DNA from: a virus
Taxonomy: Duplodnaviria; Caudoviricetes
IMG/VR virus record: IMGVR_UViG_3300022666_000111
Length of the DNA stretch: 64,000 bases
Strand: one strand, 5' to 3'
Below the pieces are notes generated by a model that saw only the letters and a list, made by a program, of their open reading frames with translations, was not told the DNA's origin and ran no database searches. Position 1 is the first letter of the stretch. Every line of letters begins with the position of its first letter. Positions 494 through 47,551 of this stretch are shown piece by piece. The position numbers and the translations under genes were made by a program.

Positions 494-519
494 TATGCCG
501 CTGGCCGTGGAGGATCAAC
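494..519 (-). promoter_or_regulatory. GTTGATC-N13-GGCATA element
   Basis: Exact match to the recurrent bipartite motif, oriented toward the MazG-like gene. Confidence 0.65.
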
Positions 520-534
520 CGATCGGGAGAAATA

Positions 535-2295
535 ATGGCAAAGATTACGATTCCGGACCCCATAGAAGCGGTGCGTCCCGTCTACGAGAAGTTGCGTGAA
601 ATCCGTGAATCCAAGACGATAAGTCTCAAGCCCAGCCCTTATCTCCGGGAGGAAATCACGGGGTTGGATGGGGAAAAGGTGCCCCTCAAGCTCAGGTACT
701 ACCAGTGCCAGGGGATCTATCACCTGCTGCTCATGCGGAGGATGGTCCTTGGGGATGGTACCGGCTTGGGGAAAACCCTTCAGGCCATCGGATCCGTCTG
801 CTACCTTTGGCCCAAGGAGCCCGCCAACAGGGTCATCGTCATCGCCCCAAAGAGCGCCTTGCGTCAATGGGCGGCGGAGATTCAGCGCTTCACGAAGGGC
901 GTGAGGACGTTCATCGCTTCGGGCTCGTTCGCGGAACGTGAACGAGCTTACGACGCCTTTTTCAATTCCCCGGCCGAAGAGGGTAAGCCCCGGGCTGTCT
1001 TGCTCTTGAACTACCACGTCTTCACGAGGGATTGGCGCCAGGGGCGCGTTCAGCCGCTTCTCCCCAATGGGAGGATCAACCCCAAGGCCCCTGTGACTCC
1101 GGGCTACCTTGACCGGCGCACCGCGCCCGTAGGCAAGGATCTGGTGGTCATCTTCGACGAGGCGACCGCCTTCAAGAACATGCGGACGAAGACCTGGGAA
1201 GTCTGCCGGGAGCTAAGTGACCGCGCGGGTAGGGTCTACGGGCTCACGGCAACGCTGCTCAAGAACAAGCTGGAGGAGGGATTCTCGATCTTCAAGTGCA
1301 TCCACCCCCCAGTGTTCACGACCAAGTCGGCCTTCCTCGACACCTACTGCACGGTGAAGCTGCAAAGCGTGGGGACGGCCAAGGTCCCGATCATCCTGGG
1401 CTACAAGAACCTGGACCTCTTCCGTTCCAGGATCGACCCCTTCTTCCTCGGGCGCCCCAAGCACGCGGTCTCCAATGAGCTACCGACCTTGACGACCCGG
1501 GAGATCGTCTTCGACCTCACCGATGCCGAATGCGCCAAGTACAACGAGGCCCTTACGGGGATCTTCGAGTTGGGCGACGGAGAGGTCAAGGACTACGAGG
1601 AGCACAAGGCATTCGTCAGCCTCATCTATTGCCAGCAGATCGTCAACTCCCTCTACATGCTACGGTTCCAGAAGGACGCCGGGTTCACCTCCGGCATGTT
1701 TGACGACCGCGTCCATACGATCGGCGACGTGAGCAGCAAGGAACAGGAGCTGATCGACCTCATCAGCGAAGACCTTGATGGTGAAAAGGTCATCGTCTAC
1801 ACACGATTCGAGTCGCATGTTGGGCGGCTCGTCAAGCTCCTCGCCAACGCCGGGATCAAGAGCGTACGCATCACGGGGGCTGAGAAGGACAAGGAGCGGA
1901 AGGCATCGCAGGATGCCTTCCAGGACCTCAAGAGTGACACCCGCGTCGTCTTCATCACGGCGGCTGGATCCGAGGCCATCAACCTCCAGGCGGCCTCTGC
2001 CCTCGTGTTCTTCGACTCCCCTTGGTCCTGGGGCGAGTACGTCCAGATCATTGGGCGTATGATTCGCATCGGATCACCCCACACGGGTGTCCTCGTGTAC
2101 CACCTTGTAGCAGAACGTGTAGCTGACACGGCGGACGACCGGCATACGATCGACCTTCACATCTTGCGAACCCTGCGGACGAAGAAGAACCTGATCGATC
2201 GGGTCATTGGTGAAGCTGCCGTGGGGGCGCTTGAATTCGAGGCGGAGGGCTCAACCGTCAAGGACTTGCTGCGGCGGGTCAAAGGCGCGGTGTAG
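535..2295 (+). CDS. SNF2-family (SF2) helicase/ATPase
   Basis: GDGTGLGKT Walker A, FDEAT, LTAT, GSEAINLQ and QIIGRMIRIG motifs. Confidence 0.9.
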   Translation: MAKITIPDPIEAVRPVYEKLREIRESKTISLKPSPYLREEITGLDGEKVPLKLRYYQCQGIYHLLLMRRMVLGDGTGLGKTLQAIGSVCYLWPKEPANRVIVIAPKSALRQWAAEIQRFTKGVRTFIASGSFAERERAYDAFFNSPAEEGKPRAVLLLNYHVFTRDWRQGRVQPLLPNGRINPKAPVTPGYLDRRTAPVGKDLVVIFDEATAFKNMRTKTWEVCRELSDRAGRVYGLTATLLKNKLEEGFSIFKCIHPPVFTTKSAFLDTYCTVKLQSVGTAKVPIILGYKNLDLFRSRIDPFFLGRPKHAVSNELPTLTTREIVFDLTDAECAKYNEALTGIFELGDGEVKDYEEHKAFVSLIYCQQIVNSLYMLRFQKDAGFTSGMFDDRVHTIGDVSSKEQELIDLISEDLDGEKVIVYTRFESHVGRLVKLLANAGIKSVRITGAEKDKERKASQDAFQDLKSDTRVVFITAAGSEAINLQAASALVFFDSPWSWGEYVQIIGRMIRIGSPHTGVLVYHLVAERVADTADDRHTIDLHILRTLRTKKNLIDRVIGEAAVGALEFEAEGSTVKDLLRRVKGAV

Positions 2296-2303
2296 GCATG
2301 AGC

Positions 2304-3134
2304 ATGGCTGTTTGCCCGCATTGCAAAGATACTGGGTGGGTCGCTGTTGATGACACCACCCGACGCAAGTGCATCTGCGCCTACGCCAAGGAGCTAAAAG
2401 AGCACCTGGGAAAGGAGATCGCTTATGCAAGAACCCTGGAGCAGTCACCGCTCTTCGTGCCTGGTAAGGATGACCTCACGGAGGACGACCTCTTCATCAA
2501 GTGTGACTGGCCCAAGCTATTACCCCATCTCAAGTGGACGCTGACCTTCAAGACGCTGGCCTTCAAGTTCGTGATCGTCACGGACGAGAAGATTAAGACC
2601 GTCTACCTTGGAGCGGAATCCTATGCGGCCCGCGCCAAAGGGCTGCGTGACGACGTGTCCACGTACAACTGCCTAGCCGACCTCATTGGCTCGCAGTATG
2701 ACCTTGTGATCATCAAGCTAGGGAACCTTGGCTACCCCAACAAGGCCATGCCAGGGATCCTTAAGGAGGCGCTTCTACTTCGAGAGGCCCTTGGAAAGAC
2801 TACCTGGTTGATCGAGGAATCCGATAAGGTCTTCGGTCCGGGCAACTTCTCGTACAGCCCGGATCTGCACACCTACATCCAAGAGAATTTTACGGTTGTA
2901 GCATTAGAGGGAGAGGCGCGACACGTCCCGCCGCCGAAAGCGGTGACGGCCCCAAGAAAAGCGGAACCCATTGAGGACGTCTCGTTGGATGATCCTCCCG
3001 AAGAGGCCCCTGTAGCGGCAACAGAGTCCGCATTCAAGGACCTTGACTGGGATATTGTTGCGGGAGGAAGTCCCAAGCGTTCCAAAGGTGGGTGGAAGCC
3101 TAAGAAGCGCCCAAGTGGTGGAGGACCGATCTGA
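2304..3134 (+). CDS. Zn-finger protein, degenerate DnaC/IstB-like helicase loader
   Basis: N-terminal CPHCKDTGW...CIC typical of phage loaders; adjacent to DnaB-like gene; no clear Walker A. Confidence 0.5.
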   Translation: MAVCPHCKDTGWVAVDDTTRRKCICAYAKELKEHLGKEIAYARTLEQSPLFVPGKDDLTEDDLFIKCDWPKLLPHLKWTLTFKTLAFKFVIVTDEKIKTVYLGAESYAARAKGLRDDVSTYNCLADLIGSQYDLVIIKLGNLGYPNKAMPGILKEALLLREALGKTTWLIEESDKVFGPGNFSYSPDLHTYIQENFTVVALEGEARHVPPPKAVTAPRKAEPIEDVSLDDPPEEAPVAATESAFKDLDWDIVAGGSPKRSKGGWKPKKRPSGGGPI

Positions 3135-4594
3135 TGAAGCGTATTTTAAGGTCTCTGATCGACTACAATGGCTCTATTCCGCAGGATGCCTTGGCGTCGA
3201 ACTACCAGCGTGTCGTTAGCTCCAACATCGAATGGACCCGCCCGGACGAGGATCGCATCTTCCAATTTCTCAAGTCATACTTTCAGCAGCGCCTTGAGAT
3301 GCCTCACGTCCAGACGGTCACGGATTACTTCGAGAAGATGGGCGACCTTGAGGTCACCGAGCGCCTCAAGGACATCGCGGCGGCTCCGTCGTACACCCGG
3401 AGCAACTTCTCACACCTCTTGAAGGAGCAGCTTGAGGCGCAAAACCAGATCAAGGCTATCGCGCACCTCAAGGAAGCCCACGAGATGATCGTCAAGGGCG
3501 TCACCGTAGGGGGCGTCCGTAAGCAAGGCGTCCGCGATGCCCTCTTGTACTTCACGGAGAAGGCCAACCAGCTCATCATTCCAGAAGCAAATGCTAAGGT
3601 TCGCGGCAACATCCGTGAGGACGGTCAAGCCGTGTGGGACGAGTACCAACGCGCCAAAGGTGACCAATCCAAGGCGTGGGGGCGCTTCACGGGGCTCAAC
3701 AACATCGACACGATCTGCCGGGGTATTAAGAAGGGTGAGCTTTGGATTCACGCGGCCTTTGCCGGGGAGCTGAAGACGACCTTCGCGACCAATTGGTGCT
3801 ACAACCTCATCACACGCTACCGTTCCAATCTCTTCTACGGCTCCCTGGAGATGAAGTACGAGCACATCCGGCGCTTGATCTACGTCATACACTCGGCCAA
3901 CGCGCGATTCCGGGCCATGGGCTACGCCCCGCTTGATTACCGAAAGGTCCGCGACGGTGAGCTAACCCCCGAGGAGGAGGTCTACTACCAGCTTGTCATC
4001 AAGGACTTCGTCGAGAACCCCGAGTACTGTGACTTCGAAACCTGGGCGCCCGATCGCGACATCACGGTTGATGATATGAAGATCGAGGCCGAGATCCTTC
4101 ACCAACGCAAGGAGATCGGCATGGTGGTCATTGACCACGGCGGCTTGGCGGAAGCCCGGAAGGCCAAGCGCAACAAGGACTACGGCGTCGAGCTGAACAG
4201 CGTCATCCGTGACGCTAAGAAGTTCGCGCTACAATTCAATCACGGTGAAGGCATCCCGGTCCTTCTCCTCTTCCAGATCAACCGTGACGGAAAGGACTAC
4301 GCGGACAAGAACAACGGGGAGTACAAGATGCGGGCGCTAAGTTACGCCAACGAGGCGGAGCGTTCGGCCGACGTCATCACGACGACCTACCTCAATGCGG
4401 ACTACAGGGAGCACAACGTCACCAAGTTCTGCTGCCTCAAGAACCGTGACAATCCCCTCTTCGACCCCTTCGAAGCTGCCGTGGACTTCACAACCCGCCG
4501 CATCTTCAACGCGGACCCCTATGCGGGAGCTGACGGGCGCGGAATCTCGGTTGACGACAACCGACAAATCATGGACGTTATGATGACGGTGTAA
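3134..4594 (+). CDS. dnaB: DnaB-like replicative helicase
   Basis: TGLNNIDTICRGIKKGEL, AAFAGELKTT (Walker A variant), SLEM, VIDH, QINR, ERSAD, KNRD. Confidence 0.8.
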   Translation: MKRILRSLIDYNGSIPQDALASNYQRVVSSNIEWTRPDEDRIFQFLKSYFQQRLEMPHVQTVTDYFEKMGDLEVTERLKDIAAAPSYTRSNFSHLLKEQLEAQNQIKAIAHLKEAHEMIVKGVTVGGVRKQGVRDALLYFTEKANQLIIPEANAKVRGNIREDGQAVWDEYQRAKGDQSKAWGRFTGLNNIDTICRGIKKGELWIHAAFAGELKTTFATNWCYNLITRYRSNLFYGSLEMKYEHIRRLIYVIHSANARFRAMGYAPLDYRKVRDGELTPEEEVYYQLVIKDFVENPEYCDFETWAPDRDITVDDMKIEAEILHQRKEIGMVVIDHGGLAEARKAKRNKDYGVELNSVIRDAKKFALQFNHGEGIPVLLLFQINRDGKDYADKNNGEYKMRALSYANEAERSADVITTTYLNADYREHNVTKFCCLKNRDNPLFDPFEAAVDFTTRRIFNADPYAGADGRGISVDDNRQIMDVMMTV

Positions 4595-4596
4595 TC

Positions 4597-4959
4597 ATGT
4601 TCATTGGTAGCTTAGTGAATCAGACGGTACGATTGCGGATGGCTTATGATTGCCAGCACGATTGGCAGTACTACAACGCAACCGAGGATCAGTGTTCGAA
4701 GTGTCGCGTTATCGCGACGGAGGAGGGGAAGCGGACCCTGGCAGCTATGGCGGCACGCTTCCATGGGCTTCCGGTCGGTGTAGAAGCTGACCATGCCCCG
4801 GGACTTTCGGCGAGAAGCCGAACAGGAAAGCAGTCAGCGGAAGCTTCAACAAGCCTGGATTCAGGAACGTGTCGCTGCGATTCGGGCGACGGTGAGCGCC
4901 TACGATGTTCTCCGCAGGTTCGGAGTGAAGCTCCAACATGCGGGGGAGACCCGCATTGA
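4597..4959 (+). CDS. Possible small Cys/His protein
   Basis: CQHDW...CSKC motif; overlaps the next gene, so boundaries are uncertain. Confidence 0.3.
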   Translation: MFIGSLVNQTVRLRMAYDCQHDWQYYNATEDQCSKCRVIATEEGKRTLAAMAARFHGLPVGVEADHAPGLSARSRTGKQSAEASTSLDSGTCRCDSGDGERLRCSPQVRSEAPTCGGDPH

Positions 4960-5428
4960 GCAGTTCTCCTGCCCCTTTCACGGTAAAGACTCAAAGCCCT
5001 CGGCCCGGCTATACCCCGCTGGGCCTACGGGGCCGTCTCACGCTTGGTGCTTCGTTTGCCAAGAGCGCTGGGACGCCATAGCCCTCTGGCGCAAGTTCAA
5101 CGACCCTACGGCCCCCTTCACCCGGTCTCTTGCCGAGATCGAGCGGACTTACGGGATCCACGCGCCCGAAATGCCGAACCTCGGCGACATTCGTGCATCA
5201 ATCCGCGAGCAAGAGTTCGAGGAGCTTCAAAGCCTCTTGGATGTGGCTGAACGACGGCTCATGGGCGCCCGTGACGACTTCGACATGAAAGCCTACCTCA
5301 CCATCGGATCCGTCTTGGACAAGCTCCATACCCGGATCGAGAAGGGGACCATCACCGCCGAGGTTACCCGCGCCACCATCCGGAAGATTCTCGATAAGAT
5401 CGGAGAGCGATGCCGCGCCGCGTCTTAG
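4793..5428 (+). CDS. CHC2 zinc-finger protein (DnaG-like Zn-binding domain, no TOPRIM)
   Basis: CPFH.KD.KPS...WCFVC; GGTGTAG at 4777-4783, 9 nt upstream. Confidence 0.75.
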   Translation: MPRDFRREAEQESSQRKLQQAWIQERVAAIRATVSAYDVLRRFGVKLQHAGETRIEQFSCPFHGKDSKPSARLYPAGPTGPSHAWCFVCQERWDAIALWRKFNDPTAPFTRSLAEIERTYGIHAPEMPNLGDIRASIREQEFEELQSLLDVAERRLMGARDDFDMKAYLTIGSVLDKLHTRIEKGTITAEVTRATIRKILDKIGERCRAAS

Positions 5429-5835
5429 TGAACATCCGGGAGATGGGGCAGATCGAATTGCTCCTTGTTCGGATGGAGGGGGGCTGTTGGGAGCCGGAGT
5501 GGGAGGCTCTGCGCGAGACACCCATAGCGGGGCTGCTTCCGGTCGTTACCCGACAAGATATAGAGCACGCCCTCAAGGGATACACTCGCCCGCTATACCG
5601 TGGGCTGGGTTTGCCTCCTGACGGGGCGTTACGCAAGCTGCCCAAGGACGCCAAGGAGTGCCGTGAAAGGCGCTCCTGTCGCCTGTGGCGGCCCGAGGAG
5701 TGTCACCCCGTGGCGAAAGCCATGCCCTGGTGTTTTCAACCGGACGCCTTGCCCTTGAAGGCAGCCGAGGTGATTCAGTTATGGCGAGAGAAGACCTACA
5801 TCGTCATAACCCTTGAGGAGGATCAGAATGCCTGA
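5410..5835 (+). CDS. Hypothetical Cys-rich protein
   Basis: ORF coupled to neighbours in the replication block. Confidence 0.55.
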   Translation: MPRRVLVNIREMGQIELLLVRMEGGCWEPEWEALRETPIAGLLPVVTRQDIEHALKGYTRPLYRGLGLPPDGALRKLPKDAKECRERRSCRLWRPEECHPVAKAMPWCFQPDALPLKAAEVIQLWREKTYIVITLEEDQNA

Positions 5836-8647: not shown

Positions 8648-8659
8648 CTTGAGGTGGCA

Positions 8660-9139
8660 ATGAGTGACTTCATCACGGAATGCAACGAGTACAAGGTCCC
8701 TGAACAGGACTTCGTTGGGGCGTGGTGTTCACGATGTCGCCGTGAGGATTGTGTTCGGAGCAGCCAAGGGACGAGCCGCTTTGACGTGCGTACCAAGACG
8801 TGGCAAGAGCGGCTCTTCACCAAGGTCCCGAAGCTGCCCGAAACCGATCCTCGCTTCCCTGGGATTGCTGCCAAGATGTTTCAGGAGACGGACAAGACCG
8901 TGCAAGCGCATGGATGGGATGCCCCTCCGCCGCCAATGCCTGAACCATCTCAAGTAGAATCGCCTCCGCCCGCGCCGGTTTCTGTGGGGCAATACACGAG
9001 GGCGCCCAATCAATCGGGGCGTGTCTTAGGCACGGCCCCGGCCGGTTGGACCCCGAAGGAAGCTGTTATTCGACCTGGGACCCGCATCAAACTTGGTGGT
9101 GGCGGTGTAGGAGAGGGCAGCGACGGAAGTAAGGCATAG
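8660..9139 (+). CDS. Hypothetical protein (CxxCxxxxC, Pro-rich tail)
   Basis: ORF with SD GAGGTG. Confidence 0.6.
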   Translation: MSDFITECNEYKVPEQDFVGAWCSRCRREDCVRSSQGTSRFDVRTKTWQERLFTKVPKLPETDPRFPGIAAKMFQETDKTVQAHGWDAPPPPMPEPSQVESPPPAPVSVGQYTRAPNQSGRVLGTAPAGWTPKEAVIRPGTRIKLGGGGVGEGSDGSKA

Positions 9140-9151
9140 GAGACCATCACC

Positions 9152-9334
9152 ATGGGTATGCGATTCAAGGCAGTCATTAGGAAAGACGGCAAGGTTGTGA
9201 CCGAGGTACTGGAGCGCGGTGAGCACCTCTGCACCGAGGTCTACAAGGTCACCAACGCGATCGGCAAGCAGCTATCGGACGAACACACTGGCCCAGAAGG
9301 GGACCGTGTTGAGGAGATCAACGGAGGGAGCTGA
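9152..9334 (+). CDS. DUF2997-family small protein
   Basis: IRKDGKVVTEV...C pattern; context next to DUF1257 and AAA genes. Confidence 0.65.
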   Translation: MGMRFKAVIRKDGKVVTEVLERGEHLCTEVYKVTNAIGKQLSDEHTGPEGDRVEEINGGS

Positions 9335-9707: not shown

Positions 9708-9730
9708 TCCCATCATCGACGGTGTCGTAA

Positions 9731-21829: not shown

Positions 21830-21854
21830 GCACGTGCCCGGTGTAGATCCGGGC

Positions 21855-24387: not shown

Positions 24388-24759
24388 ATGGCAGCAACGT
24401 TTGAGCATCTTTCTTGCCCTCTTCCGCTACCTCCCCTCGATCATCTATCCGTTGCAGAGCTAACCGCGTTGCGTCAGGAGCTTCATAGGATAGGGCGCAC
24501 CGCCCGCAAGGAGGCGTCCAAGACCATCCAGAAGATCCCGGGCTTGAATAAGCTCTGGCTCAAGACGATCGCGGTCAAGACCGACGATGAGAATCGCCTG
24601 GCGATCCTTGAGGAGTTCAATCGCGAGCTGGTCAAGCATCCCGAGGCGTTCGTGAAGCACGCCTATGCCAACTCTCTCGTCATCATCGATACGGCCATCC
24701 ACGATGAGGCCATGAAACGCGCAGCTACGACCCCTGTGATGGTGACACGAAGACGTTGA
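24388..24759 (+). CDS. Hypothetical protein
   Basis: ATG 8 nt after GGTGTAG (24373-24379). Confidence 0.6.
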   Translation: MAATFEHLSCPLPLPPLDHLSVAELTALRQELHRIGRTARKEASKTIQKIPGLNKLWLKTIAVKTDDENRLAILEEFNRELVKHPEAFVKHAYANSLVIIDTAIHDEAMKRAATTPVMVTRRR

Positions 24760-24781
24760 TCCCTCGCTGACATCGGTGTAG
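24755..24781 (+). promoter_or_regulatory. Hybrid GTTGATC-N13-GGTGTAG element
   Basis: Links the two motif classes; ATG 8 nt downstream. Confidence 0.7.
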
Positions 24782-32444: not shown

Positions 32445-32476
32445 GGTGTCCTTAGTATGCCGTTGTAGGTAACGGA

Positions 32477-33085
32477 TCAACGAGAAAGCTGTGTCCAAAT
32501 CCAATCGACCCAAGTAGTTCGGCCTTTGGCGGTGGGGTGGAGGAGGTCAGAGCCCATCTCGGCATTGGATTCACGTCCGTCGAGGTAGGGGGTCTTGGAG
32601 TCATTGATCATGGCTTTGAAGGCGTCCAGGCCGGGCACAGCGCGGGCGAGGCAGTCTTTCATGGCGTGACACACGGTGGGGTCGGTTGAGCCGATCTTGG
32701 GCGGACCAAGCCAGACGATGCGGGTTGCTCCGGTACGGTTGAGGCGGTTCAAAAGCGTTGTGAGGTACGGGGGCTCATTGGTGATGATGCGCGTCCCCAT
32801 ACAGGCGTCGTTGGCGCCAAGGGCTACGAGGATGATCGTCGGCTTGAAGGCGCGGGCACGCCAATGCTCCCGGTGGAGGCTGGTCGCCCATTGGATGACG
32901 GTGCTCCCCGCCTTGGGATCGCCGCCAAAGGGGACGCCTTCAGCCTTTGCCTTGGCGGCCAGGTATGGGTAAATGAGGTAGCCGTTACTGTCACCGATGA
33001 GCCAAACGCGATCGGTGGCCTTAATCTCGGCCTTAGCCGTCGTGGCTGTGAGCAGTAGGGCTAGAATCAGGGGAAGATGCTTCAT
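32477..33085 (-). CDS. Secreted SGNH/GDSL hydrolase
   Basis: Signal peptide MKHLPLILALL; IGDS, AGS, LGAND, DLLHP blocks. Confidence 0.8.
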   Translation of the reverse strand: MKHLPLILALLLTATTAKAEIKATDRVWLIGDSNGYLIYPYLAAKAKAEGVPFGGDPKAGSTVIQWATSLHREHWRARAFKPTIILVALGANDACMGTRIITNEPPYLTTLLNRLNRTGATRIVWLGPPKIGSTDPTVCHAMKDCLARAVPGLDAFKAMINDSKTPYLDGRESNAEMGSDLLHPTAKGRTTWVDWIWTQLSR

Positions 33086-33095: not shown

Positions 33096-33134
33096 CTACA
33101 CCAAAGAGGTTGATCTCTCGTAGGGTTAGGCATA
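33096..33134. promoter_or_regulatory. Divergent GGTGTAG (-) and GTTGATC-N13-GGCATA (+) elements
   Basis: CTACACC 33096-33102; GTTGATC 33109-33115; GGCATA 33129-33134; ATG 33143. Confidence 0.7.
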
Positions 33135-37152: not shown

Positions 37153-37203
37153 AGCGCCGCTCATACATTGATCGACACCCTCCAGGGGTGTAGTATGGGC
37201 ATC

Positions 37204-39274: not shown

Positions 39275-39971
39275 TGGGGTCTATGTCCCAGGCTGGACGT
39301 GCGGGTTGCTGTTCAAAAGCCTTGATGGGGGCGTAGCTACGGCGGTGGATCGGGCAGGGGCCGAGCTTGCGCAGCGCCTCCTCGTGGACTTTGGTGCCGT
39401 ATCCCTTGTGCTTCTCGAATCCGTAGCCGGGGTAGTCTTGAGCAAAGCGGGCCATCTCCCGATCACGGTAGACCTTGGCGATGACGCTTGCCAAGGTGAT
39501 GGCAGGGACGATCTGGTCACCTTTGGGGAGGCAGAAGACTTGGGGGTTGTGCTCTGGATCCAGGTTGGGGTTGATGCTCCCATCCACGATCACGATGGGG
39601 TTCACCGGGAGGCGGTGGAACGTCCCCTGGATCGCAAGGCGATGAGCCAAGCGTAGGGCCGCTGAAGCCCCGAGGCGGTCAATCTCCTCGGGGGGCATGA
39701 CGTAGGGGCTGATGACGATGCTATCGTTTGGCTTGAGCCAATAGCGGTCAAAGATACGCTCCCGTTCGGTCTCGGTGAGCATCTTGGAGTCACGCCAAGG
39801 GTTGCCTGGGCCACGGTTTCGGAATTCAGGATCGGTGGGTTCCCAATCACAAGAGACGGCGACCGCGCAGGTGAGGAGGGGGCCAGCCCAGGCCCCGTAG
39901 CCAGCCTCGTCGCTTCCGACAATCGGGGTGGCCCTTGCAGTATCGATGGTGGGGATGCCTGTCTTGAGCAT
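39261..39971 (-). CDS. rnhB: Ribonuclease HII
   Basis: GSDEAGYGAWAGP, DSKML, VDG, KGD, ASVIAKVYRD, HKGYGT, HRRSY. Confidence 0.95.
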   Translation of the reverse strand: MLKTGIPTIDTARATPIVGSDEAGYGAWAGPLLTCAVAVSCDWEPTDPEFRNRGPGNPWRDSKMLTETERERIFDRYWLKPNDSIVISPYVMPPEEIDRLGASAALRLAHRLAIQGTFHRLPVNPIVIVDGSINPNLDPEHNPQVFCLPKGDQIVPAITLASVIAKVYRDREMARFAQDYPGYGFEKHKGYGTKVHEEALRKLGPCPIHRRSYAPIKAFEQQPARPAWDIDPNDVV

Positions 39972-39979
39972 GATGCCAT

Positions 39980-40369
39980 CTACACCAGATTAGCCGTGTC
40001 GCACAACCCTCGAAGCTGGATTTCAGCGGTATGTAGCGCAGCTTTGTAGACCTGCATCTGCCAGGAGTTGAGCCGCACGCCACGGACCGGAACGAAGAGG
40101 GCCTTCTTGAGCTTGACGCCATCCATCAGACGCCCACCGGGGTAAGTCACCTTGCAGAGTTCGAGGGGATCAACAACAAGCTGACCAAGCACGACGTGGG
40201 CGGCGGAGTCAGCCCCCATGCGACCGTCGTCACAATAGTGTCCAGGGCATGTTGCGACGTCAGCCAGGATGGCCTTGGCGGACCAGAGGACCGTGAGGTG
40301 GTGCATGACAGCACCGGGGAGGTTGTTGAGCGTTTTACCAATGACACTGGAAGTCGTGTGTTGAACCAT
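39980..40369 (-). CDS. Hypothetical protein
   Basis: ATG 9 nt after GGTGTAG; stop within the next GGTGTAG. Confidence 0.55.
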   Translation of the reverse strand: MVQHTTSSVIGKTLNNLPGAVMHHLTVLWSAKAILADVATCPGHYCDDGRMGADSAAHVVLGQLVVDPLELCKVTYPGGRLMDGVKLKKALFVPVRGVRLNSWQMQVYKAALHTAEIQLRGLCDTANLV

Positions 40370-40378
40370 GCCTCAAAG

Positions 40379-40927
40379 CTACACCGGATCAACCTCTAGG
40401 GTGCGGTTTATCTTCTTGAGGTCGTCAAGCTCCTCCAGCTCCTTGGTTATGCTGAACGCCTCCAGCTCCTTGGCTTCCGCCCGCAGCCTTCGAAGCTCCT
40501 TCAATTGCTTGGCGAAGGCCGCCTCTGCTACGGTGATGTTGTCTCGGAGGGACTTCTGGTATGCTTCACGATACTGGTTGAACCGTAGCGCGGCGGCTTC
40601 CAGTGTTAGATCGCACTTCGACTTGGGGTAGGCGTACACCTTACCCACCTCCTCGGAGCGCGTCTTGTATCTCGCGCCGGACCAAATCAGATCGAGCTTG
40701 ATGCCAAGGAAGGCTGGGCCGCCCATCCGGACGGGCCGATCGCGTTCGCCTACGCACGTAAGCATGTGGATCGCCATTGATTGGAGGCTGAGCCCCTTGT
40801 CGACGTAGTAAATGGTCCTTGGGAGGGCGCGTAGGGCGCACCAGTCATCGGCGACGTCTATGGCAGCGTTGGGCTTTGGTGTTACAGGGGGCGCGCAAAG
40901 CTCATCCCAGTCGTCTTCGATGGTCAT
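40379..40927 (-). CDS. Hypothetical protein
   Basis: SD GAGGA; C-terminal coiled coil. Confidence 0.55.
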   Translation of the reverse strand: MTIEDDWDELCAPPVTPKPNAAIDVADDWCALRALPRTIYYVDKGLSLQSMAIHMLTCVGERDRPVRMGGPAFLGIKLDLIWSGARYKTRSEEVGKVYAYPKSKCDLTLEAAALRFNQYREAYQKSLRDNITVAEAAFAKQLKELRRLRAEAKELEAFSITKELEELDDLKKINRTLEVDPV

Positions 40928-40934
40928 GGCGTCC

Positions 40935-41288
40935 TCATACGAGCACGTGCTTCACGTTGTGCTTGGTTACCTTGCCCTTCTTGAGGCGAAGCCCTGAGAA
41001 GGAGTCACCGCCCTCCCAAGTCAAGACCAGGTCCGCCGACCCGTTGAAGGCGGGGAGGATCTTCTTGAGCAGATCTTCGGAGCCGCTGTTACCGCTCCAC
41101 CAGATGTGCTTGGGGTAGATCCGGCCGTTCTTGACGGTCTGGCCTTTGACCCAGCCGGGATCGAAGATGTTGACCTCTGGGAGGTACTCGTCCTCCGCGT
41201 ACTTCTCCTCGAGGGCCTTGTAGTCCTCCAGAGAAATGTAGAAGTCCTTGGATTCGACGATCTGGATTGAATCGATGTTGTAACTCAT
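40935..41288 (-). CDS. Hypothetical protein
   Basis: ATG 8 nt after GTTGATC-N13-GGCATA (41297-41322). Confidence 0.6.
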   Translation of the reverse strand: MSYNIDSIQIVESKDFYISLEDYKALEEKYAEDEYLPEVNIFDPGWVKGQTVKNGRIYPKHIWWSGNSGSEDLLKKILPAFNGSADLVLTWEGGDSFSGLRLKKGKVTKHNVKHVLV

Positions 41289-41321
41289 GCTGCTCCTATG
41301 CCCCAAGGTGCTGAGGATCAA

Positions 41322-41591
41322 CTAGAAAAGGGTCGAATCCGACATCTTTCGACGGAAGGCGACGCGGCCGGGCTCTTGCCCAGGGGCCGTCCAAACCTCG
41401 TAGACGCGTCCGTGGGCGCTTAGGTTGCCCCGGTAGTCCCTGTGCTCATAGCTCGGGGGCGTAAAGCGCGTGCCCCATTCCGGCTGGATAGCTGCGAGGG
41501 TATCCTTGTGGAAGACGAGCTTGATGCTTGAGGTCTCGTCAACAAGACGCCGGTCGAGAACGGCGGCCATACGGAGGGAGTCTTCGCTCAT
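41322..41591 (-). CDS. Hypothetical protein
   Basis: ATGA coupling. Confidence 0.5.
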   Translation of the reverse strand: MSEDSLRMAAVLDRRLVDETSSIKLVFHKDTLAAIQPEWGTRFTPPSYEHRDYRGNLSAHGRVYEVWTAPGQEPGRVAFRRKMSDSTLF

Positions 41592-42100
41592 TTGGTTTCT
41601 GCCTCAAGTAGAGCCCGAACGCGGGCGATCTCTTCGGGGGTATGCACGGTCCCACCTGTGTTGAAATCGAGGTACCATCGGAGGACATCGGCTCGGGTAT
41701 CCAAGTCGTTCACGTGGAACTTGACGCCGTGGTGGCTGCGCATGAACCCCGTAAACTCCGAGCGCTTGTGCCCGAACACGGGGATCTCGTCATGGAGGAA
41801 GCGGAGGAGGGCGTGGAGCCGTTGCTTGCCGTCTACAAGCACGAAGTCCTTGATGTCTCCTTGGGTCCATCCAATGCAGTTGAAAAGGATGTCCCGGCCG
41901 GTGCGACCCCCTCGGAGGATGTGTTCGACGTAGCGGATCTGCTGCTCGTCGACCCATACATGAGGCCGTTGGAAGTCAGGGTCCAGGTTGCAGCCGTACT
42001 TCTCAACGTACCGCTGAAGGCTCGCTTCCAGCCCGTCAAGGGGGACGTCGACGTAGTAGCTTGCGTCGCGGGTGTAGGGCTTGATCTCATCGAAGTTCAT
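41588..42100 (-). CDS. DUF262 (ParB/Srx-fold, GmrS-like) protein
   Basis: LDPDFQRPHVW, VDGKQRL, FNTGGT. Confidence 0.85.
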   Translation of the reverse strand: MNFDEIKPYTRDASYYVDVPLDGLEASLQRYVEKYGCNLDPDFQRPHVWVDEQQIRYVEHILRGGRTGRDILFNCIGWTQGDIKDFVLVDGKQRLHALLRFLHDEIPVFGHKRSEFTGFMRSHHGVKFHVNDLDTRADVLRWYLDFNTGGTVHTPEEIARVRALLEAETK

Positions 42101-42372
42101 TGGACCCTCTGGAGCGCCTCTGTCACGTATTTCTTGCAGGCGGCCTTGGCGTCCTCAATGTCCGTGTAAGGAGGGATGCCCTTGGCGGCGGAATTGAAGA
42201 GGGCGATGCCGTAGGTGTCACAAGCTGCCCACCAGTACCAGCCATTGGGGCATCGGCCGTAGTGGACGTGCCCGACCGCTACGCCCTTGTAGCGAAGGTC
42301 GTAGCCTCGTGGCCCTTGGCTTACGCGGGCGAGGCCCGTTTCGTTCGCTTGCTTTTTCCAAGTGAGGCGCAT
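42097..42372 (-). CDS. Hypothetical protein
   Basis: Coupled ORF. Confidence 0.55.
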   Translation of the reverse strand: MRLTWKKQANETGLARVSQGPRGYDLRYKGVAVGHVHYGRCPNGWYWWAACDTYGIALFNSAAKGIPPYTDIEDAKAACKKYVTEALQRVQ

Positions 42373-42551
42373 TAGTCTCTCCCGGGGATCGAAACCCAGC
42401 GTTCCGAGCCGTCCTTGGCGTAGGCTTTGTAGAGCACCACCAGCCCGTTGGCCTTGGCGTAGGTGTCACAGGCTTCGCGGCCCTTGGCGACCGTCTTTCC
42501 GTTGACTTGTAGCTGGGGGCCTTTGCGGGTTTCGATGTATTTAGCGAACAT
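42372..42551 (-). CDS. Hypothetical protein
   Basis: ATG 8 nt after GTTGATC-N13-GGCATA (42560-42585). Confidence 0.55.
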   Translation of the reverse strand: MFAKYIETRKGPQLQVNGKTVAKGREACDTYAKANGLVVLYKAYAKDGSERWVSIPGRD

Positions 42552-42586
42552 GCCCTCTGTATGCCGGTCAAGGTTGGGGATCAACG

Positions 42587-43126
42587 TTATTTGCAGAGCC
42601 AGGCGACGAGAAGTACCAGGAGGCAGGAGACGATCGGGATGGCATAGCCAGCAGGGGCCAGCTTGTCGCCCATATCGGAGATGCGAATGCGTGTGGGGCG
42701 CACAACGGCTGAGCTGAGGAGGAACGTGATGACGAAGGCCGCCTTGAGGGAGATCTGCTGCCAGCCCGTCAAGGGGACGATGTGCCAAGCCCAAACAACC
42801 TTGAGGGTGTATGCCTCAAGGAGGGACACGCCGGGGACCCAGAGGAAGAGGAACGCGATGATCTTCCAGAAGGACGTGAGCCGCGTCATTCGTTGCTGGA
42901 TGTCCTTGGAGGTCTGGAGGATCCGAACCTGTGTGTCTGTGGAGGCAAGCTCCCAAGAATTCCAGGGTATGACGGCACCCCAGAGCCCGTTATCGAGGTG
43001 CTCGATGGTGATGGGAAGCTCCCGTTCAGTGACACATGCTGCCTTGAGCAGGTTCAAGTCACCGGAGCTGGCGAGGACGTGGTAACGGTGGAGAGATGCG
43101 TCAACGTGGATTTTGAAGTCAGGCAT
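42587..43126 (-). CDS. Multi-pass membrane protein
   Basis: Several hydrophobic helices; ATG 9 nt after GGTGTAG. Confidence 0.55.
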   Translation of the reverse strand: MPDFKIHVDASLHRYHVLASSGDLNLLKAACVTERELPITIEHLDNGLWGAVIPWNSWELASTDTQVRILQTSKDIQQRMTRLTSFWKIIAFLFLWVPGVSLLEAYTLKVVWAWHIVPLTGWQQISLKAAFVITFLLSSAVVRPTRIRISDMGDKLAPAGYAIPIVSCLLVLLVAWLCK

Positions 43127-43135
43127 ACCGGGGAT

Positions 43136-43411
43136 CTACACCGGGAATCGGTACCACACGAAGCCATGCTCGGTACATTCGGCGACCCCGAGGTTCCCCT
43201 CGAGCTTGAGGTGGCGTACGTCCCCACCCTCCTTGCACATCGGGCAGGGCGCCTTGAAGGAGGCGAGAACCTTGGCGGTCCCACCCCCGGCTTCTGGCGG
43301 GACCTTAACCCAATCGGGGACGTCTCCCCCAAGCAGGAGCATTGTGGGGTCGTCACGGCCAATGGCTGCGACGTCTCCGGGGCGGCGGTTGAACCATTCG
43401 GTTGCCATCAT
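43136..43411 (-). CDS. Small Zn-ribbon protein
   Basis: CPMC...CTEH; SD AAGGAG. Confidence 0.55.
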   Translation of the reverse strand: MMATEWFNRRPGDVAAIGRDDPTMLLLGGDVPDWVKVPPEAGGGTAKVLASFKAPCPMCKEGGDVRHLKLEGNLGVAECTEHGFVWYRFPV

Positions 43412-43701
43412 GACTCCTTCGAGAAGACCACCAGGGCGGCGGCCAAGATATGCTTGCAGCGGATCTGACGCTTGGCGAAGTCGCCGCAGGTGCATTCGCT
43501 GCGGTGTGACTTCTTGACTAGCTTGACGAGGTAGCGGTGACCCTCGCTACCCTCGACCACAAAGATGTCCTTGTCTTGAGTTGCCTCAACATTCGCCACC
43601 AGGGCCTTCGCGCGCTCGAGGCGGTCGGCCAATTCGGGGGCGACCTTGGTCCAGCGAGCTGCGGTGGCGTTTACGGCGGCGGCGGTGGGGGCGTTCATCA
43701 T
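43408..43701 (-). CDS. SWIM zinc-finger protein
   Basis: Y.V....CTCGDF......CKHILA; bipartite element at 43710-43735. Confidence 0.8.
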   Translation of the reverse strand: MMNAPTAAAVNATAARWTKVAPELADRLERAKALVANVEATQDKDIFVVEGSEGHRYLVKLVKKSHRSECTCGDFAKRQIRCKHILAAALVVFSKES

Positions 43702-43708
43702 GCCCCTG

Positions 43709-44395
43709 TTATGCCGCGACGACGACGCGATCAACACTTTTCGTTGACTCGAGGAACTCCTCCCGGAGATCCTCGAGCCTGTGTTGGGGGTAGGTCAAAC
43801 GCAAGGAGGCGAAGTCCGCCAACGGGCGGGTAGCCAATGCGAAGTAGGTGGTCCTCTTCGAGATGAACCCGGTAAGGGCCACCTCTTCCGGAAGGGCCAC
43901 ACGAGACCGCTCACTCCAAAAGGGGTTGGATGTGAGGAAAAGGACGTGGGCTTGGACCCCCTCGACTTCAAGCAGGATCGCCCAATGCTCGGAACAGCCA
44001 TCGTAGTGCCGCAACACGGTGCCTGGGGCGAATCTATCGGGCGGTGCTGGGGGAGCCTCAACGCGATTGGCGAGGGCCTTCTTTGCGATGCCCCAGCATT
44101 CGTCAACGTTCCGCGCCATCACTTCGTACAAGGCGATGACGTTGTAGTGCTCACGGATGCTGGCCTCTCGGCTCTTCTTGGCCACGAAGATGGCCAGATG
44201 GTTTCGTACCCTGTGAAGCCCGTAGATCCACGGCTTGGGGGTTTGCTTGGGGCGGGCTTTCTTCTCGGGGAGCTGACTGTCAAGCGCCTTGTTGTAGGGA
44301 CGGATGTACGTTGAGCAGAAGGCGCAGACTACCTTAGCGTCCTTCACGTAGGTGTAGCTGGCTTGACAAGATGGACATACGTCGGCGGTCTCCAT
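43709..44395 (-). CDS. Zn-ribbon hypothetical protein
   Basis: CPSC...CAFC; SD AAGGAGG; bipartite element at 44434-44459. Confidence 0.55.
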   Translation of the reverse strand: METADVCPSCQASYTYVKDAKVVCAFCSTYIRPYNKALDSQLPEKKARPKQTPKPWIYGLHRVRNHLAIFVAKKSREASIREHYNVIALYEVMARNVDECWGIAKKALANRVEAPPAPPDRFAPGTVLRHYDGCSEHWAILLEVEGVQAHVLFLTSNPFWSERSRVALPEEVALTGFISKRTTYFALATRPLADFASLRLTYPQHRLEDLREEFLESTKSVDRVVVAA

Positions 44396-44454
44396 AGAGC
44401 CTCCTTCATCCGCTTTTGGCGGGGCGTCGTAGTTATGCCGGAGGCCGCACAAGA

Positions 44455-44688
44455 TCAACGACTTGTCGGGTCCCAACCGCTTTTGATTGCGCCTTGGACG
44501 ATCCTGGTGACGTCGCTGGGGGTCACCGTGCCGTAGACCGTGAATTGCTTAGGTTTGCCGGGCCGGTCCACGTCTTCTTGGACCGTGAGGATAGACTTGC
44601 TGGGGTCGAGCTTATCAAGCCGAGCCATCCAGCGGTAGGTCCTGCCGTTGATCTCAATGCCGCGACTTGCTTTTCGGGGGATTCCCAT
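44455..44688 (-). CDS. Hypothetical protein
   Basis: R.IEING..YRW...VTP..V...I.SGW.P pattern. Confidence 0.55.
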   Translation of the reverse strand: MGIPRKASRGIEINGRTYRWMARLDKLDPSKSILTVQEDVDRPGKPKQFTVYGTVTPSDVTRIVQGAIKSGWDPTSR

Positions 44689-45320
44689 CAAACACGCTCC
44701 CAACGCGCACGGTATTCCTGCGCATATTCCAGGTGGTAATGCACACGATCGTTATGCTGCATGATGCCCCGAGCCATTATGTGCCCAATGGCCCCAAGCA
44801 GCTCAAACCGACTCAAACCTTGGAGGGCGGGGAGGAGTACTTCCGGGGGATCTTTGAAACACGCCCGGTCTAGCTGCATGAAGGCCAGGGATGCCGGAAG
44901 GTCCTCCGGGACGTCAACACGAGGAACGTCGACGGCGTGTGGGGGCACCTCGGTGTCCACGGGGGTTACGGCGTGTCGCAGCCCTACCGGAACAGCCTCA
45001 AGGGCAGGGTCCTTGCCCGTCAGGATAAGGACATCGGCAAAGTGAATGTCCTCCCTACATCGGGCCACACACTGTACGATTTCATCCGAGAGCGTGCCTG
45101 TGGTGAGTAAGACGTGTTGACGCAACATGAGCGTTTTACGACGCGCCTCAAGGATTTCCGAGACTTGTGCTATGGCGCATTGCTGCACCTTAGCTCCGTA
45201 GGCCGATCCGTGGTGAAACGCCCCACAGAGGTCATTGTGTAACTCTTGGGGATCCTCCGAGCGTACGTAAATGATCGGCTGTAGCCCGCGTAGGTAGGTT
45301 CTGAGAAGGGTGGGTAACAT
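44688..45320 (-). CDS. Hypothetical protein
   Basis: SD AGGAG after GGTGTAG (45338-45344). Confidence 0.5.
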   Translation of the reverse strand: MLPTLLRTYLRGLQPIIYVRSEDPQELHNDLCGAFHHGSAYGAKVQQCAIAQVSEILEARRKTLMLRQHVLLTTGTLSDEIVQCVARCREDIHFADVLILTGKDPALEAVPVGLRHAVTPVDTEVPPHAVDVPRVDVPEDLPASLAFMQLDRACFKDPPEVLLPALQGLSRFELLGAIGHIMARGIMQHNDRVHYHLEYAQEYRARWERV

Positions 45321-45337
45321 GTGGGCTCCTGCTGGTA

Positions 45338-45802
45338 CTACACCGCGCGCTTCTGGTCGCGCTCGTAGGACATCTTGACGGCGTGCTCTTCGGGGCTGAG
45401 GGTGATGGTGCTATCAGGGCTGCCGTTCCAGTAAGGCTCCAGCCCGGCTGCCTCGAGGGCTGCCAAGACCAGGGCGCCGACCTTGGTGGTGTCAAGCCCG
45501 ATCGGGCCGAGCTGCTGGCTGTCAAGCTGGCCGAACCGGATGTGAAGGGTCTCTCCATCCAAGAAGCTCTCGGTGTCTTGGTGGTGGTAGAACACCGAAC
45601 CGTTGACCTTCTTGCCCTTGTTGACGCGAATGACGGCGTCTTCAGTGATCGCGTAGCCTGCGCAAGAGGAGCAGCATTCGTAGTTCTGCCTGGCGATCAG
45701 GCCCATGGCGCGCATTGCCGCGAATGCCTTGTTGAGGCGGTACTTCATGTCGGTAACGGCGCTGGTGATTTCGTAGCTGGGGCGGTAGTGGTGGCGGCTC
45801 AT
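45338..45802 (-). CDS. DUF6891-like protein
   Basis: L.KAF..M...G.IARQN..CC.SC, FYH.QD, WNGSPD. Confidence 0.65.
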   Translation of the reverse strand: MSRHHYRPSYEITSAVTDMKYRLNKAFAAMRAMGLIARQNYECCSSCAGYAITEDAVIRVNKGKKVNGSVFYHHQDTESFLDGETLHIRFGQLDSQQLGPIGLDTTKVGALVLAALEAAGLEPYWNGSPDSTITLSPEEHAVKMSYERDQKRAV

Positions 45803-45810
45803 GCCCTATG

Positions 45811-45843
45811 TATGCCGGGGCAGGCAGGGGATCAACGGTGTAG
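45811..45843. promoter_or_regulatory. Abutting divergent elements: GTTGATC-N13-GGCATA (-) and GGTGTAG (+)
   Basis: TATGCC 45811-16, GATCAAC 45830-36, GGTGTAG 45837-43; each start codon 8 nt away. Confidence 0.75.
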
Positions 45844-45851
45844 CGACATCC

Positions 45852-46187
45852 ATGTCGAGAAAATTCGAGACCGCCTTGCGGCGCAAGGGGCTCCGAGACC
45901 GGGCCGTTGCACATCTAGGCGGGAAGTGCCTGATTTGCGGCTACGACAAATGCTCCGAAGGGTTTGACTTTCACCATGTCGACCCGATGGGCAAGGACTT
46001 CACGATCTCGAACAAGATGACCTCGTGGGCGCGAATCCTTCCGGAGCTTTCCAAATGCGTGCTCCTTTGCTGTAGGTGTCACCGTGAGGTCCATGCGGGT
46101 TGGCACGTCGGCTTTCTTGCCACGGAGCCCGCCCATAGTGAACCTGCCGTAGGAGGCATCTCGGTCCAGCTCGATTTGGTTCGTTAA
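45852..46187 (+). CDS. HNH endonuclease (small, Zn-binding)
   Basis: GGKCLICGY...FHH.DP...LCCRCHREVH. Confidence 0.8.
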   Translation: MSRKFETALRRKGLRDRAVAHLGGKCLICGYDKCSEGFDFHHVDPMGKDFTISNKMTSWARILPELSKCVLLCCRCHREVHAGWHVGFLATEPAHSEPAVGGISVQLDLVR

Positions 46188-46210
46188 TCTCCATGGTTAG
46201 CTGATCAGGT

Positions 46211-46453
46211 ATGAGCAGCGTGCATCGCCTAATCCGAGCCTCCCAAGCGGTAACACCGCTCGCCGAGGTTCGCTTCAAGGGTATCCCCGACCGAGAGGAT
46301 TGGGTAGTGTGTCAGGTCTTGGCCGGTGGGGTCATCCTTGCGGAGTCAGCGGCGGGGCCGGTGGATACTGTCATGGAGGACGTGATTGGGCGGCTCGAGA
46401 AGATGAGTCAGCGGATCCACCTTGCGGCGGTTAGGGAGGAAGAGGAGGGCTAA
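46211..46453 (+). CDS. Hypothetical protein
   Basis: Plausible ORF converging on the next gene. Confidence 0.45.
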   Translation: MSSVHRLIRASQAVTPLAEVRFKGIPDREDWVVCQVLAGGVILAESAAGPVDTVMEDVIGRLEKMSQRIHLAAVREEEEG

Positions 46454-46914
46454 GCCCAGGTGATGTGTGTGGCACCCCTCTTGACGAGAACTTCAACGTT
46501 CTCCGCGAGCTGGGCTAGGCGGCGGGAGAGGTACTCCTCGTCGATGCCTTGGCTGTAGACACGGACGGGGCGAAGCTCAATTGTCCCGTCGCCGTTGTCA
46601 CGGGGTTTGCCGTATTCGATCTCCGTAGCGCGGGTGCAGGCGCCCGCCTTGGAGTCGAAGGTGTTGACAGCGCGCATGATGGCGCGCCGCATCTCGGGGA
46701 CAGTGACCTCCCCGACCATACCGTCGGGACCCATGGGCTCGAAGCCCAGCAGCTTCAGGAGCGCTGATGCATTCATATTTGAGAGGTTGAGGTCGAGGAT
46801 GTCCTCATCGCCCTCGCCCATGTGTACGGTCGTGGGGATTGTGTGGGTTTCCCCGGAGGAGAAGTTCACGGTGCGGGTGACGTTGTGGTTGGTGCCGTAG
46901 AAGGTGACGCTCAT
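46450..46914 (-). CDS. Hypothetical protein
   Basis: ATG 8 nt after GTTGATC-N13-GGCATA (46923-46948). Confidence 0.6.
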   Translation of the reverse strand: MSVTFYGTNHNVTRTVNFSSGETHTIPTTVHMGEGDEDILDLNLSNMNASALLKLLGFEPMGPDGMVGEVTVPEMRRAIMRAVNTFDSKAGACTRATEIEYGKPRDNGDGTIELRPVRVYSQGIDEEYLSRRLAQLAENVEVLVKRGATHITWA

Positions 46915-46943
46915 GTCCCTAGTATGCCGAGGGTCCTTGGCGA

Positions 46944-47417
46944 TCAACAGAATCTTGCGAGGTCCTTTTGAAGGTCCAGGCTTCGAGGGCATTCGTCAAG
47001 GAGGTGGAGGACCCGCTGAAGCTCTCGAGGTGGAACCTCTTGCAGGACGTTCTTGGCATCCAAGAGCTGCTCGATAGCATACTCAGGGTCTTCCAGTACG
47101 TAGCCCGGATGGCTACGCCGACTACGGCGGGCTGTGCCCCTACAGTAGTTGTAGAACTCATTGTGAAGGGCCGTCCACAAAGTATCACGGAACGCCCGCT
47201 TTGGGCGGCTCAACCAGACCTCTGACTCCAAGAGGCGGAGGAAGAGATGCTGAACGACGTCGTCCAAGTCCTCGGGGTTCTCAAGGTAGGCCAAGGTCCA
47301 TACACGGACAGCCTCCTGACAAGTCACGATGAATTCGTTCGCGGTGAGAGGGGCGACTCGGAGGGGAGTGAAGAGCCTTCTGGCTTGTCTATAGGATTCG
47401 TAGTCTGTTACGTTCAT
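46944..47417 (-). CDS. ECF-like sigma factor, region 2 only (region 4 apparently truncated)
   Basis: EDLDDVVQHLFLRLL...FRDTLWTALHNEFYNYCR resembles ECF region 2; GTTGATC-N13-GGTGTAC upstream (47426-47452). Confidence 0.55.
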   Translation of the reverse strand: MNVTDYESYRQARRLFTPLRVAPLTANEFIVTCQEAVRVWTLAYLENPEDLDDVVQHLFLRLLESEVWLSRPKRAFRDTLWTALHNEFYNYCRGTARRSRRSHPGYVLEDPEYAIEQLLDAKNVLQEVPPRELQRVLHLLDECPRSLDLQKDLARFC

Positions 47418-47551
47418 GCAGGTGAGTACACCGATGAATCGTTCAGATCAACAGAATCTTGCAGGCGACGGCGTTCGGATGCCTTGAGCTTCCAGGAGGT
47501 GCGGGCTCCATTCAGATGCCTTGATTAATCTACTTGTAATTCTGATGAGGC

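Follow-up and report, generated by a model that had tools for sequence, protein, structure and literature searches.

A stretch of 64,000 nucleotides (nt) from a huge uncultured phage (Duplodnaviria; Caudoviricetes; IMG/VR record IMGVR_UViG_3300022666_000111), hereafter the window, carries a recurrent two-box motif, GTTGATC-N13-GGCATA, that is almost certainly a promoter. On balance, we favour the view that this element is a lineage-specific bipartite promoter, read by a sigma-70-family holoenzyme of the extracytoplasmic function (ECF) type, whose transcripts begin at the start codon. The parts of this reading differ in strength: leaderless mRNAs appear probable and an alternative, ECF-type sigma factor is a likely reader, while the case for a phage-encoded reader is evenly balanced. 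In the mechanism envisaged, host core RNA polymerase would most likely form a holoenzyme with a phage-encoded sigma, reading GTTGATC like a -35 element and GGCATA like a -10 element, and transcription would start at the purine 9 nt after GGCATA, which in most copies is the A of the ATG. The predicted regulon would comprise small, mostly unknown accessory genes together with a sigma-like gene, the latter via a hybrid promoter. For brevity, we refer to GTTGATC-N13-GGCATA as class I, to sites with GGTGTA(G) only as class II and to an upstream box followed by N13 and GGTGTA as a hybrid.

Exact searches of the window returned 11 copies of GTTGATC-N13-GGYRTA, as opposed to none in 100 dinucleotide-preserving shuffles, and a variant beginning with ATTGATC was also found (Table 1). 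The nine GGCATA copies listed in the initial annotation were all recovered at the same positions, as were its three hybrids (one of them as ATTGATC), except that the third hybrid starts at 47427 and not at 47426, the seventh base having been counted. Extension into a Logan contig that belongs to the same phage (overlap 100% identical) added 23.6 kb, for a total of 87.6 kb, and contributed 6 further copies: 5 with GGCATA, each followed by ATG exactly 8 nt downstream, and an ATTGATC/GGTGTAG hybrid with a leader. The 18 copies analysed in the 87.6 kb thus consist of the 11 exact copies and the ATTGATC variant of the window and the 6 of the extension, and all 18 are co-oriented with an open reading frame (ORF) 2–50 nt downstream. 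Those headed by the window copies encode 59–285 amino acids (aa) and most belong to no known family, in agreement with the earlier description of small accessory genes.

Table 1. Class I and hybrid promoters of the window and the genes that they head.
Feature	Position	Strand	Context
Class I, leadered	494-519	-	GGTGTAG box (452-458) 35 nt downstream, then ATG 443
Gene of the 494 promoter	60-443	-	MazG-like pyrophosphatase; phrog_3301, 1.6e-21
Hybrid GTTGATC-N13-GGTGTA	24755-24780	+	ATG 24790, 9 nt downstream; 273-aa DUF1848 protein; TGA in GTTGATC ends 224-codon upstream frame
Class I	32456-32481	-	Predicted start A, 9 nt after GGCATA; ATG 32444 at 11 nt; predicted 3-nt leader; 74-aa ORF
Class I	33109-33134	+	ATG 33143 at 8 nt; 112-aa ORF, no family; back to back with opposite-strand GGTGTAG box 33096-33102
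Hybrid ATTGATC-N13-GGTGTA	37167-37192	+	HD-domain protein; in-frame ATGs at 37195 and 37204
Class I	41297-41322	-	ATG 41288 at 8 nt; 117-aa ORF
Class I	42560-42585	-	ATG 42551 at 8 nt; 59-aa ORF
Class I	43710-43735	-	ATG 43701 at 8 nt; 97-aa SWIM zinc-finger protein
Class I, 38-nt leader	44434-44459	-	AAGGAGG 6 nt before ATG 44395; 228-aa zinc-ribbon protein
Class I	45811-45836	-	ATG 45802 at 8 nt; 154-aa DUF6891 protein; adjoins +-strand GGTGTAG box 45837-45843, hence divergent promoters
Class I	46923-46948	-	ATG 46914 at 8 nt; 154-aa ORF; upstream sigma-like gene ends at the TGA in GTTGATC
Sigma-like gene, 157 aa	46944-47417	-	ECF-type region 2, no detectable region 4; lineage-specific
Hybrid GTTGATC-N13-GGTGTA	47427-47452	-	ATG 47417 at 9 nt; heads the sigma-like gene

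The geometry of the motif is strict. A dyad search ranked GTTGATC-N13-GGYRTA as the highest-scoring gapped dyad in the window, and a scan of spacers from 8 to 19 nt found 13 nt in all copies and none with 12 or 14, as had been claimed. Tolerance of 2 mismatches adds just two doubtful sites, and the motif is thus nearly all-or-none. The spacers are unrelated in sequence (mean pairwise identity 0.33), again as first described, bar one near-duplicate pair whose second member lies beyond the window. This pair, 42560-42585(-) and 83275-83300(+) in the extended sequence, is ∼40.7 kb apart and alike both in the spacer (11 of 13 positions) and in the 8 nt before ATG; the genes downstream differ, as if a promoter cassette had been copied or had recombined. 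Two boxes at a constrained spacing, with free sequence between them, are what is expected of a bipartite promoter of the sigma-70 family. The 25 other copies of GGCATA, those without GTTGATC, have no recurrent or gene-start context, suggesting that the second box has no function unless the first is present. AT-rich, UP-like tracts upstream of GTTGATC are only marginal (0.46 vs 0.41).

The spacing towards the gene is likewise fixed. ATG lies 8 nt after the second box in 11 of the 14 GGCATA copies of the 87.6 kb, including six of the nine in the window, as originally reported, and the start codon is ATG throughout; longer leaders occur at two copies (494 and 44434). Such a short, fixed distance between box and ATG, with no Shine-Dalgarno sequence in it, is the signature of leaderless mRNAs. 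The base preceding ATG is nearly always C, and across all copies the eighth position after the second box is a pyrimidine in 15 of 18 and the ninth a purine in 16 of 18. That this step conforms to the -1/+1 rule for transcription start sites, even in the leadered copies, argues for a promoter, and so does the copy at 44434, where the predicted start (9 nt after GGCATA) precedes the AAGGAGG ribosome site. The presence of AAGGAGG at this copy also indicates that the host uses ordinary ribosome sites and that the motif itself is not one.

The boxes often encroach on the end of the preceding gene: at 7 of 18 sites the TGA within GTTGATC terminates a long upstream frame, suggesting that promoters are packed into gene ends, and the TAG of GGTGTAG is the upstream gene's stop codon at 19 of 57 sites. 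This overlap, along with the near-duplicate promoters ∼40.7 kb apart, which recall recombining cassettes, could be taken to mean that the motif is no transcription signal at all but acts in RNA processing or translation or delimits mobile gene cassettes. We consider this very improbable: (i) the two boxes are not mutually complementary; (ii) proteins that read duplex DNA typically leave a spacer of fixed length and free sequence; (iii) at the 44434 copy a separate ribosome site follows the motif; and (iv) cassette shuffling would follow from a promoter role rather than replace it.

Comparison with a diverged relative provided additional support for a promoter. L056 and L057, two contigs from the Joint Genome Institute (JGI) that are syntenic with 46.4–50.4 kb of the window, encode proteins 45–64% identical to those of the phage. 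In L056 both orthologous promoters (those at 46923 and 47427 in the window) read GTTGATC-N13-GGCATC-N8-ATG, with the first box retained at 7 of 7 bases, while 5 of 13 spacer positions and 16 of the 45 upstream positions match. The retention of the boxes amid scrambled spacers suggests that the boxes and the two distances are under selection and the intervening sequence is not. The promoter of the sigma-like gene, a GGTGTA hybrid 9 nt from ATG in the window, is a class I promoter with GGCATC at 8 nt in L056, both with N13.

Beyond these contigs the spelling of the motif is not retained. No match for the 40–48 kb part of the window was found by megablast among cultured and deposited phages, and the motif is without a match in the named phages closest by helicase, Tunturiibacter phage Tunturi_5 and LR745208.1 (uncultured, 485 kb), which are only 32–39% identical in this protein. 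Of 15 IMG/VR loci with ∼50% identity to the window in the family A DNA polymerase (PolA), most lie on contigs of 183–513 kb, and a search for TTGATC-N13-GGYRTA in 14 IMG/VR relatives gave nothing beyond one chance match; a pattern scan of IMG/VR likewise gave single chance matches only. In JGI metagenomes the strict pattern had 0 matches, and with a looser pattern the only multi-copy contigs among the matches listed were unrelated low-GC tandem repeats. When dyads were instead sought de novo in three of the relatives with ∼50% PolA identity, each yielded a different two-box motif in the same layout: CCGAAC-N16-CGTAGTA-N5-ATG in G003 (46 copies, 36 at the fixed distance), GGAAAAA-N15-TCGTCT-N7/10-ATG in G006 (31 copies) and GGTATAG-N14-GCGCGTT-N8-ATG in G005 (36 copies). 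If the CGT of the relatives is aligned with the CAT of the window, the distance from this core to ATG is 9 nt in all four phages, and the motifs of G003 (CGAAC/CGTAG) and G006 (GGAAA/CGTCT) are near the ECF sigma consensus. These same-geometry motifs are the strongest argument for regarding GTTGATC-N13-GGCATA as the local version of an ECF-type class found at the head of leaderless genes.

In a further, 512-kb relative (G011) the signal of the dyad search was dominated by arrays of clustered regularly interspaced short palindromic repeats (CRISPR). One such array, at 124.3–126.2 kb, contains 28 repeats (GGGGATCCTTGATTGGATCCCC core), and G011 has at least one additional array, in which the repeat is a variant.

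Class II is the more widespread of the two motifs. GGTGTAG occurs 39 times in the window versus 4.9 expected, for example at 2289-2295(+), 21840-21846(+), 39980-39986(-) and 61648-61654(-). About 24 GGTGTA copies are followed by ATG after 9–12 nt, mostly 9–10, and several GGTGTAG copies have long leaders with AGGAG. A search upstream of GGTGTAG for a concealed -35 element found none, only a C just before the box (cGGTGTAG). GGTGTA-N8-11-ATG far exceeds its control in each of five relatives (91 vs 5 in G003, 112 vs 10 in G005, 71 vs 0 in G006, 73 vs 12 in G011 and 53 vs 3 in G012); it is not enriched in Tunturi_5 and only weakly so in LR745208.1. The two promoter classes are found together on the arms of the genome; large central regions, probably the structural module, have almost none of either. 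Back-to-back inverted pairs of the form CTACACC-N3 to N8-GGTGTAG lie between divergent genes at 452-473, 50549-50565 and 63158-63174, and would be compact bidirectional promoter palindromes.

The initial annotation regarded GGTGTAG as the same -10 box used without a -35. We read GGTGTA instead as a separate, conserved class, because it is found throughout the clade, including in phages with quite different second boxes, because the relatives are nearly without hybrids, because its ATG lies at 9–10 nt as opposed to 8 nt for GGCATA, and because GGCATA needs GTTGATC. Hybrids of the lineage-specific -35 box with GGTGTA do exist, four in this phage and essentially none in the relatives. From 52 GGTGTA and 25 GTTGATC sites we estimate ∼0.01 coincidences at one fixed spacing, and 2 were seen, in addition to 1 with ATTGATC; at a count this far above expectation the hybrids are not due to chance. 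The exchange of GGTGTA for GGCATC at the orthologous promoter of the sigma-like gene, moreover, indicates that the two boxes can occupy the same slot and lends the earlier proposal weak support: in this lineage the second boxes appear to be so alike (GGYRTA) that they could be exchanged at one orthologous site. Elsewhere, a GTTGATC at 40387-40393(-) sits 1 nt, not 13, upstream of the GGTGTAG promoter at 40379-40385(-), and could be a chance occurrence or a site where a box-binding factor would block the promoter.

The dependence of GGCATA on GTTGATC, while GGTGTAG stands alone, is also what sigma appropriation akin to that at T4 middle promoters would produce: GTTGATC would be the site of a MotA-like activator and the -10-type box would be read by the sigma of the GGTGTA class. 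The 13-nt distance, kept even in the hybrids, fits such an arrangement, the MotA box of T4 being located 11–13 bp upstream of the -10 element. The relatives, however, change both boxes together and hybrids are essentially absent from them, for which one two-domain reader is the better explanation, and no MotA or AsiA homologue was seen, although no search aimed at them was made. We therefore regard appropriation as improbable and return to a sigma that would read both boxes.

Two types of sigma-like protein are candidates for this role. The 157-aa protein encoded in the window passes the Sigma70_r2 model (26.8 bits; cut-off 24) and covers positions 4–101 of 165 of the ECF sigma model TIGR02937. 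It has almost no homologues among 1.8 billion representatives, apart from one at 45% identity on L056/L057, no orthologue in the relatives and no sequence match in the PDB, and its AlphaFold model is too poor for use (predicted local distance difference test score, pLDDT, of 53). It is one candidate reader of a promoter class. A gene at +22 kb once listed as sigma-like has, by contrast, no Pfam match even at E ≤ 1. Just upstream of the 157-aa protein's gene and of its promoter lies an Endonuclease VII gene, at 47552-48049(+), which gene tables show to be missing in some near-identical strain variants from other sequencing runs.

The second candidate is a split sigma, encoded in all five relatives tested (G003, G005, G006, G011 and G012) and belonging to a family of at least 69 clusters, in which region 2 is interrupted by an insert of ∼100–180 aa and a helix-turn-helix is located at the C-terminus. 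Its sequence diverges to 27–68% identity, and it was not found in Tunturi_5 or LR745208.1. In all five relatives its gene is preceded by TTGAC(A/G/T)-N18-TA with a degenerate -10, and in G003 the class I box of that phage is also found upstream. This sigma-A-like signal suggests a cascade in which host sigma-A would make the phage sigma, which would in turn drive the phage promoters. As a third promoter class, TTGAC-N18-TA was rejected: it is otherwise rare and not enriched genome-wide.

The two promoter classes may be assigned to these proteins in two ways. The split sigma, having both domains and diverging to the extent given above, may read the lineage-specific two-box class. Alternatively, and more parsimoniously, the conserved split sigma may be the reader of GGTGTA, the conserved class, with the two-box class read by a host factor or a lineage-specific one. 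Tunturi_5 and LR745208.1, which have neither the split sigma nor a clear enrichment of GGTGTA, fit the second assignment, in what is a single phylogenetic contrast.

Several points weigh against an ECF-type promoter of leaderless mRNAs with a reader made by the phage: (i) the canonical ECF cores are not matched, there being no AAC in the first box and CAT instead of CGT in the second; (ii) TTGATC resembles the sigma-A -35 element TTGACA (4 of 6 positions) and is 17 nt from TA; (iii) the 8 nt before ATG are G-rich (aGGGac) and may hold a ribosome site cramped into a very short leader; (iv) the sole sigma-like gene of the window is without a detectable region 4 and is a poor candidate for reading a -35 element; and (v) the second assignment leaves the lineage-specific class without an identified phage-encoded reader. 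With regard to distances, the end of GTTGATC is 15 nt from CAT (17 if the core is GTTGA) and CAT is 9 nt from ATG; ECF cores are 16–18 bp apart, and the start of ECF transcripts lies ∼9–10 nt beyond the -10 core.

The second of these points raises the possibility of an early promoter for host sigma-A, with TTGATC as the -35, a 17-nt spacer, TA from a degenerate -10 and GGCA as a contact of the extended -10 kind. TTGATC-N17-TA is indeed sigma-70 geometry, the genes driven are small ORFs without known function, as is typical of early genes, and the relatives have TTGAC-N18-TA, its -10 just as degenerate, in front of their sigma genes. Yet the sixth position of TAnnnn (-7) is T in just 1 of 18 copies, contrary to the sigma-A -10 consensus, and the conserved bases lie upstream of TA; a TA at -12/-11 would put the start within or after ATG; the motif is all-or-none and not a graded consensus; and the same-geometry promoters of the relatives are unlike TTGACA/TATAAT, though the specificity of sigma-A is nearly universal. 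Consensus sigma-70 promoters are not enriched between 31 and 50 kb (3 found vs 5.6 expected). In light of these features, we deem a sigma-A promoter unlikely.

The last two points bear on whose ECF sigma would be at work. Each phage of the clade might have adapted the promoters of its accessory genes to an ECF sigma that its host encodes: host ECF sigmas are diverse, in keeping with lineage-specific spellings, two of which (in relatives) are textbook ECF motifs, no two-domain phage sigma is tied to class I, and there are weak leads to an Acidobacteriota host. Host ECF sigmas, however, are normally scarce and kept inactive by anti-sigma factors and would be ill suited to driving a large phage regulon, and the phages encode sigma-like proteins of their own. 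A host ECF sigma thus seems a rather unlikely reader. Taken together, the fixed spacing, the orientation towards genes, the conservation in L056 and the same-geometry motifs in relatives support the proposal, made when the motif was first noticed, of a -35/-10 promoter for an alternative sigma factor. An ECF-type promoter of leaderless mRNAs therefore remains our preferred reading of these sequence comparisons. A broader extrapolation, which we offer tentatively and hold to be somewhat doubtful, is that in a whole clade of 370–510 kb phages the non-structural genes are almost wholly leaderless, being served by the GGTGTA class and by an ECF-like class that each lineage respells together with a fast-evolving phage sigma.

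Other genes of the window include those for an SNF2 helicase, a DnaB-like helicase, the family A DNA polymerase, a thymidylate synthase and a ClpX-like ATPase. One of the weak leads to Acidobacteriota as the host phylum is a 570-aa phage protein encoded at 53997-55709(-), which has a transglycosylase domain of the penicillin-binding protein (PBP) type and whose nearest Atlas clusters are mostly from Acidobacteriota. GATC occurs 487 times in the whole window, as compared with ∼234 expected from base composition, and every class I upstream box contains it; Dam-type methylation could touch all class I promoters.

To our knowledge, the promoters of uncultured huge phages are essentially unmapped, and a literature search found no paper on the motifs reported here. 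The two-box motif offers a testable transcription map of the phage, with membership of an accessory regulon and predicted mRNA starts, and improves gene calling, as the true starts would be the ATGs 8 nt after GGCATA and not upstream in-frame codons. That one promoter class is shared by the clade and the other respelled in each lineage suggests a diversification of gene control in huge phages. If phage sigmas do read the lineage-specific class, the clade would offer a naturally occurring collection of mutually orthogonal sigma/promoter pairs and serve as a model for the co-evolution of sigma factors and promoters, in which the stop codon of the upstream gene is often built into the promoter.

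Several known systems share parts of this organization. ORF-adjacent -10 boxes giving leaderless mRNAs have been validated in Deinococcus-Thermus (PMC12340547), and Thermus phage P23-45 has middle and late promoters of the extended -10 type (PMC7403470). As in our phage, the start codon follows a -10-type box closely, within narrow limits of distance, and there is no ribosome-binding site; unlike GGCATA or GGTGTAG, which have no final T, their boxes are the TANNNT of sigma-A, and class I additionally needs an upstream box. The late promoters of T4 that depend on gp55 (TATAAATA) consist of a -10 element only, while the gp28 and gp33/34 promoters of Bacillus phage SPO1 are bipartite. In these cascades, and by analogy perhaps here, phage sigma-like proteins redirect the host core polymerase, and bipartite and -10-only classes are found in one genome; the sequences, however, are unrelated, the mRNAs here are apparently leaderless, and it is the bipartite class that varies between related phages and the -10-only class that is conserved. 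T4 middle promoters, in which a MotA box and a sigma-70 -10 element are used with AsiA, also have an upstream box ∼13 bp from a -10-type element in place of a -35, whereas here both boxes co-vary between relatives. A parallel to our preferred reading is provided by promoters of ECF (group 4) sigmas, such as GGAAC-N16-17-CGTC, among which those of leaderless mRNAs are reported to be enriched for A starts (PMC7776599). The window boxes differ in being without the AAC and CGT cores, and the predicted regulon differs in being phage-borne and almost entirely leaderless. Shared by the two systems are two short boxes, an intervening stretch whose length is strict and whose sequence is free, a start at a pyrimidine/purine step and leaderless variants with A starts, and the motifs of the relatives G006 (GGAAAAA...TCGTCT) and G003 (CCGAAC...CGTAG) are near the ECF consensus in the very layout seen in the window.

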